Source: a virus
Taxonomy: Duplodnaviria > Heunggongvirae > Uroviricota > Caudoviricetes
Direction: 5' to 3' (one strand)
Length of the DNA: 43,156 bases
Virus record (IMG/VR): IMGVR_UViG_2802429223_000002
This document shows, one piece after another, positions 35,171 through 41,902 of the stretch (position 1 is its first letter; every line of letters begins with the position of its first letter). Under the pieces are notes generated by a model. That model searched no databases, was not told the DNA's origin, and worked only from the letters and a program-made list of their open reading frames with translations. The translations under genes and the position numbers were made by a program.

Positions 35171-35757
35171 GCGTTAGTTTCTCCACAACCAGAAGCAATC
35201 GACGCCACGACGCCCGGAGCTGCACACTCGCGGGCGTCATTACTTTCTGAAATGCAAAAAATTTTGTAGACAAGTGCTGCATGCTCCTGCAGTTTCGAAA
35301 TTGAGAGATACAGCTCGTCGTTAATTGCTGTCTTCTCATGCGGTTCCACCACACCGTCTTCGATTGCCGAACGAATCTGTTTGGAATAACTGCCAATCTG
35401 TTCAATGACTTCCAGCAGGCGCTGGTTAATATCGGCGTTATCCACATCCTCGACGTCAGGAAGAGACACAAAGACGCCATTTGCAGACTGCGCCACAGCG
35501 TCAGCAATGAAGTGAGTGCCACCAGCACGTTGTAAAATCATCGCCCATCCCAGCGGGAAAATTTGATCGCCATCGGCACGAAGGCGGTTAAATAATGCGT
35601 TCTCTGTTACATCCAGCCAGTCAGCTGCTTCAGCGTAACCCCCCGGCAACGCTGCGATAGTTTTTCTGACAGCTTTCACGTACCACTTAGGCTGTTTTTC
35701 TACTTTCCAGTGATGCTTACCCACGGCTATCTCCTTAAAACTGTGGTTACTTTTCAT
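35167..35757 (-). CDS. phage early regulatory protein, possibly CII-like (CP76-type)
   Basis: About 196 aa from ATG 35757; position directly downstream of the cro-like gene; family assignment uncertain. Confidence 0.35.
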
Positions 35758-35995
35758 CTGATGAATCTTTAATCTTTTGAAAAATATCTGGACGTAATTT
35801 TTCTTTTGATATGCCAGTGGTCTTTTCAATGAATATCGAGAGCTTTGCAGGGGGACGCTTTTCTCTGTTCAACCAGTTCCAGACATGTTGTTGCTTTACT
35901 AAATGACCGCTGCTGGCTGTGAGCTTCCGAGCCAATTCTGATTGACCACCAGCCAGAGCGATTGCCTCCGATAAGGCTAATTGCTCAGGTGTCAT
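35747..35995 (-). CDS. Cro-like HTH regulator
   Basis: 82 aa with HTH (SEAIALAGGQSELARKLTASSGHLVKQQHVWNW); divergent from cI across an operator-rich 135-bp spacer; AGGAG SD. Confidence 0.6.
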   Translation of the reverse strand: MTPEQLALSEAIALAGGQSELARKLTASSGHLVKQQHVWNWLNREKRPPAKLSIFIEKTTGISKEKLRPDIFQKIKDSSDEK

Positions 35996-36130
35996 AGCTT
36001 TCTCCTTTTTAGGTAGTTAAGTTGTTACAAGTTGCAAGAATACAACATTAACAACTTTTATCACAACTTTTAGGTGTTGGAAAGCTAAAACATAAAGTTG
36101 TAACCTCATCAAAAAAGAGAGGGATATGTT
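35996..36130. promoter_or_regulatory. OR-like operator/promoter region between cro-like and cI-like genes
   Basis: Repeated half-sites AAGTTGT (36019, 36030, 36104) and ACAACTT (36052, 36065); 9-bp palindrome TTGTTACAA at 36022-36030; tandem ACAACTTTTA at 36051 and 36064. Confidence 0.6.
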
Positions 36131-36817
36131 GTGAAAACACTGGCAGAACGATTAAAGATAGGTAGAGAGAAAGCTGGCATGAGCCAAGCTCAACTAGCTG
36201 AAAAAATTGGACTTTCACAACAATCTGTAGCCAAAATAGAGAATGGCGAAACTCTACAACCGCGCAAAATTAAAGAAATTGCAAAAGTTTTAGGTGTATC
36301 ACAAAAGTGGTTACAACTTGGTATTGAAGACAACGCATCCATACCTGATCTTGTTGTAAAAGAAGCAGAAAGCACCGCATTAGACCCCGATATTTTCGTA
36401 AACATTCCTGTTTTAGATGTCGAGTTATCGGCAGGTAACGGATGTCTGGCTGAAATAGTTGAATCAGCTATTGACTGGTTTCCGTTAAGAAGAGCAGATT
36501 TGAGAAAATCTGGCGTATGTGCATCTAATGCCAAGATCGTAAAAATATGGGGGAACAGTTTATTACCAGTTCTCAATAATGGAGATCTTGTTGCCGTTGA
36601 TATTTCTCAAACCGTTCCTATTCGTGATGGCGATCTTTATGCCGTACGAGATGGTGTATTGCTAAGGGTTAAAATACTTATCAACTTACCTGACGGTGGC
36701 TTGATTCTTAGAAGCTTCAACAAAGATGAGTACCCAGATGAAATACTCACCTTTGAAGATAGACGAGCCAGAATTCATGTTATAGGTAGGGTATTCTGGT
36801 CATCGCGAACTTGGTAA
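36131..36817 (+). CDS. CI-like prophage repressor (HTH_XRE N-terminus, S24 LexA-like peptidase C-terminus)
   Basis: GTG start with AGAGAGGG SD; HTH (MSQAQLAEKIGLSQQSVAKIENGE) and C-terminal S24-like autocleavage domain. Confidence 0.85.
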   Translation: MKTLAERLKIGREKAGMSQAQLAEKIGLSQQSVAKIENGETLQPRKIKEIAKVLGVSQKWLQLGIEDNASIPDLVVKEAESTALDPDIFVNIPVLDVELSAGNGCLAEIVESAIDWFPLRRADLRKSGVCASNAKIVKIWGNSLLPVLNNGDLVAVDISQTVPIRDGDLYAVRDGVLLRVKILINLPDGGLILRSFNKDEYPDEILTFEDRRARIHVIGRVFWSSRTW

Positions 36818-37690
36818 TGCATCGAAAAGCATTTCTTCAGAAATAATTTTAAGTTTTGCACCATTATCATCCCTATAAGATATAGCTTTTTCGATCTTCC
36901 TTCCGTGACTTGAGAATTTCCAATCACGGGAGGAAAGCGTCCCAATTACTAAAAAATCCAACTTTTGAGTAATTCCACTACTGATGTTCCCACCAGCATT
37001 TTTAATCAAATTTTCAACTACGGCTCTCTTTCCTGCAACAAAAGTGCCTGTAAGACAATAGGTTTTACCCTCTAACTCTATCGAAGCCCCTACATCAATA
37101 GGCAGCCTGGTCGCCAAACCATCCACCACCCCACTTTCCAAGTCACATCCTGTGAAGTCTACTAATGCCTTATGTAGAGTTAAACTCTCATCTTCAGTAA
37201 TAACCCCATCTTTAAGAATTTCCTTTACAAGTGCATAAAGTTTTTTTCCTGGGTAGTTGTTCTTCAAAGCTCCATTTTGCTCAAGCCACCAATTAAGATA
37301 TCTTATTTCTTCTTGAGTTAAGTTCCGATCAGCAATTAATCCTTTACATAGTCCATTAAGTAAATGGACATCTACATCCTTGGAGTAAAAATCAATTTCA
37401 GGGATATCAAGAATTTCCCTCTGTATTTGGAGAAGGCTATTTTTAAGGTCATCACGTTCTTCTGATGTGATTATTCCATCCGCAAGAATATCCGACACCC
37501 GTGCTGATAGACTTTTTATAACTCCATTATTGATAATCTGCTTTGCTTCAAGTACCCATGTATCTAAGTAAAGAACCTCCTCTTCACGGACAACTCCATC
37601 TGCAATGATTCCATCAATGATGCTAATCAAGTTAGCAAATAACTTGTCCCGGTTCTGTGTGTAATTAAAAGCGTAAAGCGCGTCTTCCAT
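36800..37690 (-). CDS. tandem-repeat protein with C-terminal BRCT-like domain (rex-slot cargo gene)
   Basis: 296 aa from ATG 37690 (AGGAGG SD); four ~40-aa repeats (IADGVVREEEVLYL / LADGIITSEERDDL / IADRNLTQEEIRYL / LKDGVITEDESLTL) then GKTYCLTGTFVAGKRAVVENLIKNAGGNISSGITQKLDFLVIG, which resembles NAD-ligase BRCT domains; AT-rich. Confidence 0.6.
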   Translation of the reverse strand: MEDALYAFNYTQNRDKLFANLISIIDGIIADGVVREEEVLYLDTWVLEAKQIINNGVIKSLSARVSDILADGIITSEERDDLKNSLLQIQREILDIPEIDFYSKDVDVHLLNGLCKGLIADRNLTQEEIRYLNWWLEQNGALKNNYPGKKLYALVKEILKDGVITEDESLTLHKALVDFTGCDLESGVVDGLATRLPIDVGASIELEGKTYCLTGTFVAGKRAVVENLIKNAGGNISSGITQKLDFLVIGTLSSRDWKFSSHGRKIEKAISYRDDNGAKLKIISEEMLFDALPSSR

Positions 37691-37744
37691 ACAACCTCCT
37701 TTTTTTGATAATCCTTGCACTCCTTGGCTACTCGTTCAAACCAC

Positions 37745-37800
37745 ATAAAGTTGTTGACAACATTCAAAACCACAACTAAATTACAACTTAAAGGTGTTAA
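37745..37800 (+). promoter_or_regulatory. OL/pL-like operator-promoter: -35 TTGACA inside 11-bp palindrome TGTTGACAACA, -10 TAAATT
   Basis: Palindrome 37752-37762; -35 37754-37759; 17-nt spacer; -10 37777-37782; operator half-sites AAGTTGT / ACAACTT shared with the OR region. Confidence 0.55.
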
Positions 37801-37898
37801 AACAACGAACAGGCAGGACGCCCACGAAGTAGCCGCCTAGGGCATATGAAGTCCAGGATGATTCGTTAGCAACAAAAAAGCGCCCTACAGGACGCTTA

Positions 37899-37910
37899 GC
37901 TCTTTAACAA
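37899..37910 (+). promoter_or_regulatory. boxA-like antitermination element (GCTCTTTAACAA)
   Basis: 12-nt match to the rrn-type boxA core, about 110 nt downstream of the pL-like promoter and 45 nt upstream of the first early-left gene. Confidence 0.45.
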
Positions 37911-37955
37911 TCTGGTCCCCATCAACAAGTAACTGATAACTTGAGGAGGTGTGAA

Positions 37956-38162
37956 ATGCACAAAACAGAACCAAAAATCGTCGCACCCGGATACACAAAT
38001 GAGGAAATTTACGAGTGGATGGCAAAGAAGCTGGCAGCTATAAACCAGCTTCGTGAAGTGCTGTCTTATCGACAGGAAACAATAGACTCCTTAAAAAAAC
38101 TGGATCAGGAAATCACGGTTTTATCACAGGATGTTACTTTAGATATTGTGCAGACAAATTAG
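37956..38162 (+). CDS. hypothetical small protein, first gene of early-left operon
   Basis: 68 aa from ATG 37956 with GAGGAGG SD 5 nt upstream; not Arg-rich, so not recognisably N-like. Confidence 0.5.
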   Translation: MHKTEPKIVAPGYTNEEIYEWMAKKLAAINQLREVLSYRQETIDSLKKLDQEITVLSQDVTLDIVQTN

Positions 38163-38568
38163 GATCCCATTCATTTTCGTCAAAATCATCAAAGTGATGA
38201 ATTTGTGATCTCCAGTCTCGATAATCTAAAAATTTCTGGGCGGTTACGCTTATTTTATCAAGCGTGAGTTCATCCTGAATTGAAAGAAGAAGTTCATCAA
38301 ATTTCATCTCATTAATCTGTTTTGGCATCCAGTGATGCTTCATCAGAATAAGGTGAACCAGAGCTTTTTTCCCATTCAACTGATTATAGGGAGTGCCGAA
38401 TTTCTTCCGGTGCTCATGTAAGACAAGGTCCAGAAGAGTAAGTAATGTTGCCCTTGATTCAACTTTGCTTATTTCGACTGATGACACTACCCCACTGATT
38501 TCAATGCCCCGATACTTTCCAACATTTTCACAGTGGGATTTGTACAGCGTATAGATATTACCGGACAT
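38134..38568 (-). CDS. hypothetical protein, antisense to the early-left operon (moron candidate)
   Basis: 144 aa, AAGGA SD before ATG 38568; AT-rich; own upstream region carries tandem direct repeats. Confidence 0.5.
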   Translation of the reverse strand: MSGNIYTLYKSHCENVGKYRGIEISGVVSSVEISKVESRATLLTLLDLVLHEHRKKFGTPYNQLNGKKALVHLILMKHHWMPKQINEMKFDELLLSIQDELTLDKISVTAQKFLDYRDWRSQIHHFDDFDENEWDPNLSAQYLK

Positions 38569-38584
38569 TTCTTTTCCTTTTGCG

Positions 38585-38635
38585 TTGTTGGGGATAACCA
38601 GATTAACCGAATCCTTGTTGTTGGGGAATAACCAG
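38585..38635. repeat. two direct repeats TTGTTGGGGA(A)TAACCAG, 33 bp apart
   Basis: Copies at 38585-38601 and 38618-38635, 20-70 nt upstream of the minus-strand gene start at 38568. Confidence 0.8.
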
Positions 38636-38854
38636 GTCCACCTCGCCTGATGTGGCTAAAAGCAGGCACATAACAGCTAAGTATTTTCAACCAGAGAGAA
38701 TTCTTAGCGTTGTGGTGAATGCGGCTCAGCGCACGCGGGTTAAGGTTGAGGCTGACAGTCGACCTTCTGTGGATACCCACCCGTCTGGTGTGCAACCTTC
38801 GCCAGGCACCGGGAGGCACCCGGCACCACAACTTTATGCTGTGTGTAGTCCTGG

Positions 38855-38899
38855 CGGTACCAGTTTGTACCCTTGCTTCCGGCTGGTACCGTCCTTTTT
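38855..38899 (+). terminator. terminator-like hairpin and T5 in early-left operon
   Basis: 9-bp stem CGGTACCAG / CTGGTACCG with 19-nt loop followed by TCCTTTTTA. Confidence 0.45.
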
Positions 38900-39020
38900 A
38901 CAAAACAGAGAAGAGCATCACCGGACGACGGGCTCATAACCCAATCCATCCGGGCGGCTACCACCGCAGGTGTTCTTCTCTGTTTTGTGGAGAAACTAAC
39001 CGCCCCTACGGGGGCATTTA
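38900..39020 (+). other. hairpin-dense non-coding stretch (15-bp perfect inverted repeat plus GC tetraloop hairpin); candidate structured RNA or regulatory site
   Basis: ACAAAACAGAGAAGA (38900-38914) pairs perfectly with TCTTCTCTGTTTTGT (38974-38988); GCCCC-TACG-GGGGC hairpin at 39002-39015; overlapping ORFs lack RBS. Confidence 0.4.
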
Positions 39021-39111
39021 TGGAAATGTAATTGACTCAATAATCGCCGGACGGTGAGGGCTTCCTTTTACCCGAATTCAGCGCGGTGCAGCGCATATAC
39101 GTGGAGAACAA

Positions 39112-39649
39112 AATGTCATTTATTAAAACTTTTTCCGGGAAGCATTTTTATTATGACAGGATAAATAAAGACGACATCGTTATTAACGATATCGCGGTTT
39201 CCCTTTCAAATATCTGTCGCTTTGCAGGACATCTTTCACACTTCTACAGTGTCGCCCAACATGCGGTGCTTTGCAGCCAGCTGGTGCCGCAGGAATTTGC
39301 TTTTGAAGCTTTAATGCATGATGCAACAGAAGCATATTGCCAGGACATCCCCGCACCACTGAAACGACTTCTTCCTGACTATAAACGGATGGAAGAAAAA
39401 ATAGACGCCGTAATCCGTGAGAAATACGGGTTACCTCCTGTTATGAGCACGCCAGTGAAATATGCCGATCTCATTATGCTGGCAACCGAACGCCGCGATC
39501 TCGGGCTTGATGATGGCTCTTTCTGGCCTGTACTGGAAGGTATCCCGGAAACAGAGATGTTCAAAGTGATTCCACAGGCACCGGGCCATGCCTACGGGAT
39601 GTTTATGGAACGTTTTAACGAGTTATCGGAGTTACGCAAATGCGCATGA
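39112..39649 (+). CDS. HD-domain phosphohydrolase
   Basis: H...HD metal-binding pattern (HLSHFYSVAQHAVLCSQLV ... ALMHDATEAY); ATG 39112 with GGAGA SD. Confidence 0.7.
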
Positions 39650-40005
39650 ATGTTTTCGAAATGGAAGGGTTTCTTCGTGGGAGATGTGTACCGCGAGATC
39701 TGAAAGTGAATGAAACAGATGCTGAATACCTGGTGCGTAAATTCGATGCGCTTGAAGCTAAATGTGCAGCACAGGAAAACAAAGTAATACCAGTGTCAAC
39801 TGAACTGCCACCAGCAAATGAAAGTGTTTTGTTATTCGATGCTAACGGAGAAGGCTGGCTAATTGGCTGGCGTTCTCTCTGGTACACCTGGGGACAAAAA
39901 GAAACCGGAGAATGGCAGTGGACATTTCAGGTCGGGGACCTTGAAAACGTCAATATCACTCACTGGGCAGTAATGCCAAAAGCACCGGAGGCTGGAGCAA
40001 AATGA
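39640..40005 (+). CDS. DUF551-like phage protein
   Basis: C-terminal Trp-rich segment (GWLIGWRSLWYTWGQKETGEWQW...ITHWAVMP) typical of DUF551 as recalled. Confidence 0.55.
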   Translation: MRMNVFEMEGFLRGRCVPRDLKVNETDAEYLVRKFDALEAKCAAQENKVIPVSTELPPANESVLLFDANGEGWLIGWRSLWYTWGQKETGEWQWTFQVGDLENVNITHWAVMPKAPEAGAK

Positions 40006-40307
40006 CCACTTTTACCGACAAAGAACTGATTAAAGAAATTAAAGAGCGTATCAGCAGTCTTGACGTGCGAGACGATATTGAGCGCCGTGCTTATGAAATC
40101 GCACTCCTATCTCTGGAAGTAGAACCAGATGAACGCGAAGCTTATGAATTATTCATGGAAAAGCGTTTCGGTGACTTAGTAGATCGTCGGAGAGCAAAAA
40201 ACGGCGATAACGAATACATGGCATGGGATATGACTCTCGGTTGGATCGTCTGGCAGCAACGAGCTGGTATCCATTTTTCAACAATGTCACAACAAGAGGT
40301 GAAATAA
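40002..40307 (+). CDS. hypothetical protein
   Basis: 101 aa; overlapping start/stop with flanking genes in the same operon. Confidence 0.5.
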   Translation: MTTFTDKELIKEIKERISSLDVRDDIERRAYEIALLSLEVEPDEREAYELFMEKRFGDLVDRRRAKNGDNEYMAWDMTLGWIVWQQRAGIHFSTMSQQEVK

Positions 40308-40657
40308 TGGAGCCATACAGCCTCACACTCGATGAGGCCTGTCATTTTCTCAAGATATCCAGACCGACTGCCATTAACTGGATACGCACAGGGCGTCTTC
40401 AGGCAACACGCAAAGATCCCACTAAGAATAAATCTCCTTACCTCACTACACGACAAGCCTGCATTGCGGCTCTTCAGTCTCCGCTGCATACTGTCCAGGT
40501 GAGCGCGGGTGATGGCATAACAGAGGAAAGAAAATGTCACTCTTCCGCAGAGGTGAAATATGGTACGCCAGTTTCACATTGCCGAACGGTAAAAGATTTA
40601 AACAGTCTCTTGGAACAAAGGACAAAAGGCAGGCGACAGAACTCCATGACAAGCTAA
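40307..40657 (+). CDS. xis: excisionase-like HTH protein (AlpA/Xis family)
   Basis: N-terminal [26 protein letters not shown]; TAATG overlap with upstream gene; ORF runs 124 nt into the int reading frame. Confidence 0.55.
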
Positions 40658-41697
40658 AGGCTGAAGCATGGCGGGTCAGCAAACTTGGTGAAATACCTGA
40701 TATAACATTCGAGGAAGCGTGTGTCAGGTGGCTTGAAGAGAAAGCACATAAAAAATCACTGGACGATGACAAAAGCCGGATCGGATTCTGGCTTCAACAT
40801 TTCGCAGGAATGCAACTAAGAGACATTACTGAATCAAAAATTTATTCAGCAATGCAGAAAATGACGAACCGGCGTCATGAGGAAAACTGGAAACTCAGGG
40901 CAGAAGCATGCAGAAAAAAAGGGAAACCTGTTCCAGAATACACGCCAAAACCAGCGTCCGTTGCAACGAAGGCTACGCATCTTTCATTTATAAAGGCCCT
41001 ACTAAGAGCCGCAGAGCGTGAATGGAAAATGCTGGATAAGGCACCAATTATTAAAGTGCCTCAACCAAAGAATAAACGGATCCGCTGGCTGGAGCCCCAT
41101 GAAGCACAAAGGCTGATTGATGAATGTCCGGAGCCATTAAAGTCTGTTGTTGAATTTGCACTGGCAACAGGCTTAAGACGCTCGAACATCATCAACCTTG
41201 AATGGCAACAAATAGATATGCAGCGCCGGGTGGCATGGATAAACCCGGAAGAGAGTAAATCAAACCGCGCAATTGGCGTTGCGCTGAATGATACTGCATG
41301 TCGCGTATTGAAAAAACAAATCGGGAATCATCACCGTTGGGTATTTGTGTACAAGGAAAGCTGTACCAAACCAGACGGAACGAAAGCGCCAACAGTAAGG
41401 AAGATGCGGTATGACGCAAACACAGCCTGGAAAGCGGCGCTGAGACGGGCTGGTATTGATGATTTCAGATTTCACGACTTGAGACACACCTGGGCAAGTT
41501 GGCTGGTTCAAGCCGGAGTCCCGTTGTCAGTGTTACAGGAAATGGGAGGCTGGGAGTCTATCGAAATGGTTCGTCGATATGCTCACCTTGCACCTAATCA
41601 CCTTACCGAACACGCACGGCAAATAGACTCGATCCTGAACCCATCGGTCCCAAATTTGTCCCAGTCAAAAAATAAGGAAGGTACTAATGATGTGTAA
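40534..41697 (+). CDS. int: tyrosine integrase (P4-type, tRNA-targeting)
   Basis: [15 protein letters not shown]-terminus typical of P4-like integrases; C-terminal catalytic region [15 protein letters not shown]...VRRYAHL; ends 15 nt from the tRNA 3' end. Confidence 0.9.
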
Positions 41698-41711
41698 CTT
41701 ATTGATTTAAA

Positions 41712-41787
41712 TGGTGCCGATAATAGGAGTCGAACCTACGACCTTCGCATTACGAATGCGCTGCTCTACCAACTGAGCTATATCGGC
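41712..41787 (-). tRNA. thrW: tRNA-Thr (anticodon CGU)
   Basis: Reverse complement reads GCCGATATAGCTCAGTTGGTAGAGCAGCGCATTCGTAATGCGAAGGTCGTAGGTTCGACTCCTATTATCGGCACCA: cloverleaf with CGT anticodon and 3' CCA; matches E. coli thrW as recalled. Confidence 0.95.
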
Positions 41788-41902
41788 CCTGAAAAGGACA
41801 TGTTCACGAACGTGAATCACGGTGGACAAGGTTAAAACTAACCGGGCGATGCGTCAATGGCCTTGTGAATCAAATGGCTACTTTTGCATCACCCGGTTTT
41901 AT

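Follow-up and report, generated by a model that had tools for sequence, protein, structure and literature searches.

A conserved 68-nt leader RNA, frequently joined by an rrn-type boxA, as a candidate N-independent antitermination site downstream of pL in lambdoid prophages

The expression of delayed-early genes in the many lambdoid phages that lack an N protein is an open point, and recent comparative work merely guesses at a 'put-like' RNA in such phages (PMC12315714). Here, we report on the early-left leader of a lambdoid prophage in the IMG/VR virus record IMGVR_UViG_2802429223_000002, a stretch of 43,156 nucleotides (nt) that was analysed as a whole and is referred to as the window. Between its pL promoter and an rrn-type boxA lies a folded RNA of 68 nt, the element, which makes this leader a concrete candidate for the missing function, and a very common one. 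An earlier note, made from the letters of the window, had described the promoter with its left operator (OL), operator words in common with the right operator (OR) region, the lack of an N-like gene and the boxA, all of which were borne out, and had left out the conserved leader RNA. The parts of the leader are as follows.

37745..37800, plus strand: pL/OL region, with -35 TTGACA at 37754-37759, a 17-nt spacer and -10 TAAATT at 37777-37782
37802-37869, plus strand: structured leader RNA of 68 nt between promoter and boxA (covariance model R1, 86.8 bits)
37874..37897, minus strand: hairpin AAGCGCCCUACAGGACGCUU (hairpin proper 37878-37897), preceded on the plus strand by a run of A6
37899-37910, plus strand: rrn-type boxA GCTCTTTAACAA, which fits GYTCTTTAANA at 37899-37909; TCTGG comes next, as it does in the 16S-23S spacer of rrn

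A conserved RNA at the start of the early-left transcript

When the leader was compared by BLAST with deposited phages, positions 37800-37867 were kept at 80–98% identity in about 50 phages, while the flanks diverged. These phages include SfV, SfII, SfIV, ST64B, ZF40, YeP1-3, phiNP, mEp460, mEp237, SEN34 and SPN3UB, Gifsy-like phages of Klebsiella and Citrobacter, Pantoea AH07 and others. The element lies directly past the repressor gene or cassette, in the direction of pL, in all 19 annotated records, and the early genes that come after it are unrelated between phages. Pattern scans extended this distribution to at least 120 IMG/VR contigs and to 112 stretches in species-representative genomes, nearly all of them from Enterobacterales, in which more than 100 species carry the element. 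The genera represented include Kosakonia, Kluyvera, Leclercia, Enterobacter, Klebsiella, Citrobacter, Yersinia and Serratia, as well as Xenorhabdus, Photorhabdus, Atlantibacter, Buttiauxella and Mixta. Of the 5,426 complete Escherichia coli genomes, 1,524 (28%) match 37740-37960 by megablast. The Rac prophage of K-12, including its annotated small RNA KilS, does not contain the element.

The 68-nt leader RNA appears to be undescribed. No match was obtained on 37790-37930, at E values up to 5, in an Rfam covariance scan of 35500-41900, and a full-text literature search for the core sequence of the element gave no match either, King et al. 2011 being outside its reach. The element was unannotated in all records examined, including those from groups that do annotate putL in other phages (HK75, HK639), and no RNA gene was annotated under the leader region of the E. 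coli genomes among the matches listed.

Promoter matches of at least 9/12 were located upstream of the element in 55 contexts, and in 49 of these the -10 hexamer ends 12–23 nt before the outer helix P1, which places the element right at the 5' terminus of the early-left transcript. For the window's copy the distance is 21 nt, and the leader RNA begins about 13 nt past the predicted transcription start at approximately 37789-37790. The earlier note had placed a consensus -35 within an 11-bp palindrome, 17 nt from TAAATT, and these parts were found exactly there: the palindrome TGTTGACAACA occupies 37751-37761 as an inverted repeat of 5+1+5 (TGTTG-A-CAACA), and the hexamers match the sigma-70 promoter consensus at 10/12 positions. 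This was the best of the four promoter-like sites given by a promoter scan of 35600-39300. Since 7.9 such sites were expected from shuffled sequence and the count is thus not above chance, the promoter call rests on position and on the comparative data rather than on the match alone.

At the other end of the element, the sequence diverges directly after P1 across relatives, which indicates that the element is independent of its local context. A second conserved non-coding block, TTAACGCGCAGCAGGT...AACGTTCCGCYGGCCDGGCGA, was observed about 10–70 nt past the element in the Gifsy/Rac-like members mEp237, SEN34, SPN3UB, ST846phi9.2, Chris1 and PHB10 (L013-L018) and holds a possible covarying hairpin of its own.

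Exactly one copy of the element per phage was detected with model R1. A search with this model of the window, and of 3 kb of pR-side sequence from 18 phages, gave no second, putR-like copy. Some bacterial genomes hold more: up to four or more copies per genome were seen in Xenorhabdus sp. TCT-1 (L164, L165, L216, L220) and on several Photorhabdus cinerea contigs. The copies in these two genera of insect pathogens often have a boxA and no hairpin, and their number suggests many related prophages or phage-derived loci.

Structure of the leader RNA

The fold of the element was derived from alignment A1, which holds 62 distinct sequences without gaps and in which column n corresponds to window position 37801+n. 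The structural parts are, in order along the window:

37804-37809 with 37862-37867 (columns 3-8 with 61-66): helix P1, with covariation
37812-37814 with 37820-37822: hairpin P2', with a small, variable loop
37823-37835: invariant linker CACGAAGUAGCCG
37836-37840 with 37853-37857 (columns 35-39 with 52-56): helix P3, with covariation and a conserved 12-nt loop GGCAUAUGAAGU
37858-37861: invariant AUGA before the 3' strand of P1

In P1 and P3 together, 94.2% of the cells of the alignment are paired, and in 10 pairs both partners have changed. None of 500 shuffles reached the observed percentage of pairing or the covariation score, and pairing fell to 20–50% when the 3' partners were slid by 1–3 columns. 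RNAalifold and mutual information returned the same P1 and P3 pairs. The third and smallest hairpin, P2', is suggested by the invariant GGC and GCC that flank a loop of 5 to 7 nt, variable in length as well as in sequence. Like the linker and the AUGA, the P3 loop (GGCAUAUGAA across relatives) is invariant or nearly so, and the element has in all 26 invariant nucleotides, most of them unpaired. Folding of 37790-37925 as a single sequence was uninformative (z = 0.23), so that the structure is revealed by comparative analysis only. A hammerhead or other ribozyme was considered and rejected: the junction strands CA, CACGAAGUAGCCG and AUGA do not fit the hammerhead core, and Rfam gave no match.

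An rrn-type boxA as a partner of the element

The boxA at 37899-37910 is the sole exact copy of its 12-mer in the window, for which the chance expectation is about 0.005 per window, and it is identical over 12/12 positions to the boxA of the E. coli rrnB leader; the earlier note had called it a 12/12 match to the rrn boxA core. It agrees with the functional consensus GYTCTTTAANA (PMC5725501). Of 219 distinct loci, 43 have this consensus on the sense strand in the 250 nt that follow the element. None of the 219 has it on the antisense strand of these stretches, and none in the 250 nt upstream; the chance expectation is about 0.1. The boxA is thus a real, strand-specific and frequent partner of the element. 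Its presence in the leader of a phage without N is unusual and is now well supported.

A hairpin stands before boxA in some of these loci. The module AAAAAAGCGCCC..GGACGCTT-N-GCTCTTTAACAAT was present in about 17% of the first 137 loci, and its boxA was exact in 20 of 23 module loci, while two more carried GCTCTTTAAAAA, the form of the E. coli 16S-23S spacer. The only variants seen, AACAA and AAAAA, are both natural E. coli rrn forms, and neither the hairpin loop nor the linker is as well conserved as boxA. On the minus strand the hairpin reaches -11.0 kcal/mol, has a U6 tail and is a canonical intrinsic terminator; on the plus strand its energy is only -6.5 kcal/mol, its stem has a C·A mismatch and its U tract is poor. 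The module adjoins the 3' end of a reverse-oriented open reading frame (ORF) in 8 of 9 distinct contexts, compared with 24 of 87 contexts without boxA. Because of the better fold on the minus strand and the association with reverse genes, the hairpin is best read as mainly a minus-strand terminator of reverse-oriented inserted genes. In 13 of the 43 loci with boxA, mainly from Xenorhabdus and Photorhabdus, no hairpin is found and the flanks are unrelated.

The statement in the earlier note that no boxB hairpin follows boxA stands for the order known from lambda, as no hairpin was found 3' of boxA (37911-37955), but it passed over the hairpin that precedes boxA at 37878-37897, which is the order of rrn operons. 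The resemblance of the flanks to rrn is partial: this hairpin folds better on the minus strand, and downstream of boxA the likeness to the spacer is confined to TCTGG, a clear boxC not having been found.

The arrangement was also seen in Providencia phage PR1, a virulent T5-like phage (L142 2380-2640), where the element scores 67.9 bits and has compensatory changes in both P1 and P3. Promoter and element lie in both terminal repeats, ahead of the pre-early genes A2/A1, and GCTCTTTAAAAA follows 9 nt past the element with neither hairpin nor reverse gene. The neighbouring proteins of PR1 have no relatives in the lambdoid loci, and the element was not found in T5 itself by BLAST. Together with the strand-specific counts, the arrangement in PR1 argues that boxA is not a passenger. 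Also, since the element heads the pre-early operon of PR1 without any protein in common with the lambdoid loci, a host target is indicated.

The early-left operon downstream of the leader

The first 1.3 kb of the early-left transcript contains only one short translated ORF. Three features precede the conserved early-left genes:

37956-38162, plus strand: first ORF, 68 aa, phrog_1744 (unknown function), not N-like, with a strong GAGGAGG Shine-Dalgarno sequence
38134..38568, minus strand: 144-aa gene, phrog_5286, which the pL transcript crosses as untranslated antisense RNA
38679..38901, plus strand: STnc100-like RNA (Rfam 41.9 bits, E 1e-6, below the gathering score of 47)

The 68-aa product had been described before as unlike the N antiterminators; it belongs to phrog_1744, and Pfam and PHROGs gave no N family for any early-left ORF of the window. 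The STnc100-like RNA ends in a strong intrinsic terminator on the sense strand at about 38892, with a stem CGGUACCAG...CUGGUACCG of -15.7 kcal/mol followed by UCCUUUUU, which precedes all conserved early-left genes (from 39086 to int) and is also present in SfV and mEp460. With a strict terminator finder, strong sense terminators were returned for the window, for SfV and for mEp460; a lenient one was noisy (40 sense and 90 antisense). Several ORFs called across the STnc100-like RNA (for example MRLSARGLRLRL...) are probably spurious.

Comparison with put RNA and other antitermination systems

The put RNAs of phage HK022 are about 70 nt long, and putL lies directly after pL; put RNA alone, without proteins, binds RNA polymerase near the zinc-binding domain of beta' and suppresses pausing and termination (PMC9378689). 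HK022 putL and putR and the annotated putL of HK639 were therefore located and compared with the element by eye and by model R1. Both kinds of RNA are found directly after pL in lambdoid phages without N, measure about 65–75 nt and combine adjacent stem-loops with many conserved unpaired bases, and both act regardless of the downstream sequence, as far as this can be read for the element from its divergent flanks. In each, the first stem-loop region stands between a conserved A and a conserved G (A37811 and G37835 in the element, A9 and G35 in putL), and in HK639, too, the left-operon copy alone is annotated. The architectures differ: the element is closed by the outer helix P1 and has a short P3 with a conserved 12-nt loop, while putL has a stem I with a triplex, G35 and a long stem II with a GGAUGA tip. 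Moreover, the element is often followed by boxA, which is no described part of put sites. Mutations in the beta' zinc-binding domain, such as Y75N in rpoC, block put. Only the short words CGAAC.GGC and GGAUGA are common to the two. Membership of the element in the put family was rejected, no homology having been detected by R1 or by BLAST. Rfam does not detect HK022 put; there is thus no put model in Rfam, and that database is uninformative on put.

In the HK639 record a hairpin annotated as 'M3-like RNA' lies after cII in the pR operon (L019 37910-37969), at the place of putR in HK022; its sequence bears no relation to that of the element.

The likeness to the antitermination system of rrn operons (boxB-boxA-boxC with NusB, NusE, NusA, NusG, SuhB and S4) lies in the boxA, which equals that of the rrnB leader and has the spacer form as its alternative in relatives, in the hairpin before and the TCTGG after it, and in a region to be transcribed that is largely untranslated. 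It differs in that a phage early operon rather than rRNA is transcribed, the preceding hairpin reads mainly as a minus-strand terminator, no clear boxC was found and a large conserved RNA lies upstream. With the nut sites of lambda, P22 and phi21 the leader has in common its position behind pL, the boxA and the purpose of expressing delayed-early genes; unlike them it has no boxB after boxA and no N protein, and its structured RNA comes before boxA and much exceeds boxB in size. As in the 5' untranslated leader of suhB, an exact consensus boxA stands outside rrn and upstream of Rho-sensitive RNA (PMC5725501). In contrast to such stand-alone sites, the boxA of the window is phage-borne and coupled to a conserved structured RNA. 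CRISPR array leaders are reportedly another place where a stand-alone boxA occurs outside rrn operons.

Proposed mechanism and alternatives

From these comparisons we read 37745-37910, with confidence a little better than even, as pL/OL followed by a composite, N-independent, nut-like antitermination site in which a leader RNA directed at the polymerase is combined with an optional boxA for Nus factors. Transcription would start at about 37789, and the first ~80 nt of the transcript would fold into the three-helix element at 37802-37869, whose 26 invariant nucleotides probably bind the host elongation complex directly, in the manner of HK022 put RNA, and make it resist pausing and termination. 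The boxA, 30 nt past the element, would then recruit NusB/NusE and, together with NusA, NusG and SuhB, may protect the complex from Rho, in line with known boxA biology. The next ~1.1 kb is predicted to be largely untranslated, as it is antisense to the 144-aa gene and then encodes the STnc100-like RNA. Element and boxA would carry the polymerase across it, past the terminator near 38892 and on to xis, int and the HD-phosphatase gene, while the hairpin could insulate pL and the immunity region from antisense or convergent transcription. A division of labour may thus be envisaged in which the leader RNA counters pausing and intrinsic termination, and boxA, where present, counters Rho across untranslated stretches.

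To our knowledge, all known roles of boxA concern the elongation complex, and the coupling to boxA therefore places the element in the control of transcription elongation. A host target, most simply RNA polymerase, is favoured because the element is autonomous from downstream sequence and adjacent to the promoter, its unpaired bases are invariant, and it occurs in unrelated phages that have no protein in common. A need for read-through is implied by a strong sense terminator 1 kb into an operon that has no N-like protein. The earlier note had arrived at host-factor-based antitermination from boxA; an N-independent mechanism that uses Nus factors is a reasonable inference, given the missing N-like gene and the sense-strand coupling of boxA in unrelated contexts, but boxA as the whole device is not sustained, since it accompanies the overlooked 68-nt covarying RNA in only about 20% of loci. 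On these sequence grounds the leader is classed as a candidate among the cis-acting, N-independent early antitermination sites.

Several observations weigh against this assignment. Polymerase binding, Nus recruitment and read-through are all drawn from sequence comparison. Model R1 gave no match, at E values up to 10, on HK022 (L001) or HK639 (L019), a BLAST search with putL retrieved HK022, HK75, O276, phiEt88, HK639 and others without any overlap with the phages that carry the element, and no pR-operon copy of the element corresponds to the putR of HK022. In 80% of loci no strict boxA is found within 250 nt, so element and boxA are not obligate partners. In the window's copy, helix P3 contains a mismatch of A37839 with C37854, which recurs in only one other locus (L044); 74 of 97 relatives carry G-C at these positions. 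The mismatch may weaken the element in the prophage of the window. The strand is not settled by counts of G·U against A·C in the helices alone, and the strand assignment of the element consequently rests on its promoter context. Strong downstream sense terminators are clear in loci of the SfV/ST64B/ZF40 type and few or absent in those of the Gifsy type, so that only for part of the family does the terminator census speak for a need of read-through.

Alternatively, boxA alone could be the antitermination signal, acting through an rrn-like Nus complex, with the 68-nt RNA serving an unrelated role in protection from RNase E or 5'-end decay or as a processing site. The exact boxA with its strong enrichment on the sense strand would accord with this, as would the location of the element at the extreme 5' end of the transcript, since 5'-terminal structures commonly stabilise mRNAs. 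We regard this as unlikely, because the four-fifths of loci that have the element without a strict boxA show that boxA is not the general device, and because a stabilising stem does not need 26 invariant, mostly unpaired nucleotides kept across a range that extends from Escherichia to Aeromonas and includes a T5-like phage.

The element could also be the RNA site of an unrecognised antiterminator or regulator encoded by the phage, together with boxA an analogue of nut with its boxB and N in lambda. A structured RNA beside boxA does resemble a nut site, and many small ORFs of unknown function lie nearby. The first downstream ORFs vary from phage to phage, though, and none is consistently Arg-rich or N-like; neither Pfam nor PHROGs gives an N family in the window, the factor possibly being encoded elsewhere in the genomes; and the T5-like phage has element and boxA with no neighbouring protein in common with the lambdoid loci. 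Such a factor is improbable.

Small chances are given to a third alternative, in which the element belongs to another kind of RNA: a riboswitch, a ribozyme that cleaves itself, or the 5' portion of a short small RNA that acts in trans and is ended by nearby terminators. Conserved nucleotides at a three-way junction are typical features of aptamers and ribozymes, and in some relatives (Eeyore, AH07, ST64B, SfV) a strong sense terminator does lie 100–240 nt downstream. Against it, the Rfam scan gave no match to known ribozymes or riboswitches at E values up to 5, no conserved expression platform is present, the sequence diverging directly after P1, the placement of terminators is inconsistent across loci, and the coupling to boxA points to elongation control.

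A negative role of boxA, as in the suhB leader, where the Nus complex would repress translation of the first ORF and promote Rho termination, is quite improbable. The boxA of the window does lie 45 nt upstream of the ATG of the 68-aa ORF, within the 50-nt range that defines suhB-type targets (PMC5725501), but at other loci it precedes reverse-oriented genes or unrelated sequence with no conserved start codon, and an early phage operon needs read-through. Least probable of all is that hairpin and 'boxA' are only a 3' terminator cassette of reverse-oriented inserted genes and the boxA is fortuitous: this was favoured at first, given a hairpin that is a canonical terminator on the minus strand only and a module beside the stop codon of a minus-strand ORF in 8 of 9 contexts, and was largely refuted by the sense-strand counts (43/219 against none antisense or upstream), by the boxA loci that lack the hairpin amid unrelated flanks, including a T5-like phage without a reverse gene, and by a boxA more conserved than hairpin loop or linker.

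As a wider and more tentative proposition, which we put somewhat below even chances, the element may represent a second class of RNA, structurally unrelated to put, that binds the elongation complex directly and brings about processive antitermination, and with boxA may form a protein-free nut site that recruits Nus factors without N. It would then be used by a large share of the N-less lambdoid prophages of Enterobacterales, including those in about 28% of complete E. coli genomes, and for the pre-early genes of T5-like phages. If true, the known classes of polymerase-modifying RNAs would be doubled, and a natural hybrid of RNA and Nus factors would stand between the put and the N/nut strategies. 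A compact folded RNA, often with a ribosomal-type boxA, in prophages of E. coli, Shigella, Salmonella, Klebsiella, Yersinia, Xenorhabdus and others would also have a bearing on prophage induction and on the expression of cargo, such as serotype conversion by SfV, SfII and SfIV and virulence genes of the Gifsy family, and could serve as a short portable part for terminator-proof expression.

Operators, immunity region and neighbouring genes

The window is a lambdoid prophage of the SfV/SfIV type, located at the thrW tRNA beside proA; its nearest deposited phages by BLAST are Shigella SfIV, SfV and SfII and several E. coli phages. The remaining features that concern the immunity region and the left end of the prophage are:

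35995..35747, minus strand: cro, with a YdaS-type helix-turn-helix
35996-36130: OR region between cro and cI, with operator words as at pL
36131-36817, plus strand: cI, with HTH_3 and Peptidase_S24 domains
37690..36803, minus strand: gene for a BRCT-domain protein of 296 aa, between cI and pL
37748, 37772 and 37783: operator words AAGTTGT, ACAACTA and ACAACTT, respectively, in the pL region
40307-40657: excisionase gene (xis)
40534-41697: integrase gene (int), P22/SfV-type
41715-41787, minus strand: thrW tRNA

The earlier note had also stated that the operator half-sites at pL recur in the OR region, and the word counts agree with this. The words AAGTTGT/ACAACTT occur 10 times in the 43-kb window, and 6 of the 10 lie at pL (37748, 37783) or in the OR/cI-start region (36019, 36051, 36063, 36095). 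Two longer words, ACATAAAGTTGT and ACAACTTnnAGGTGTT, are also present at both pL and OR, and with so many words in common it is plausible that one repressor acts at OL and OR. A sigma-70 promoter overlapped by repeats common to OR, the predicted repressor sites, and located beside cI and cro is what is expected of a lambdoid pL/OL; promoter and operators are ordinary.

Other RNAs were observed in relatives. On the minus strand of SfV (L002 817-1005), ST64B (L004 745-933) and 118970_sal3 (L012 745-933), a C4 antisense RNA of the P1/P7 type and isrK were found in the pR-side operon, both above the Rfam gathering scores, which indicates a secondary immunity of the ant/C4 type. In SPN3UB, isrB lies antisense to the early-left region (L015 3763-3850).

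The reverse gene at 36803-37690 encodes a C-terminal BRCT domain (Pfam 1.3e-6) and belongs to phrog_3989, of unknown function. It may be a cargo or defence gene expressed in the lysogen, and its own promoter would need to sit inside or beside the pL leader.

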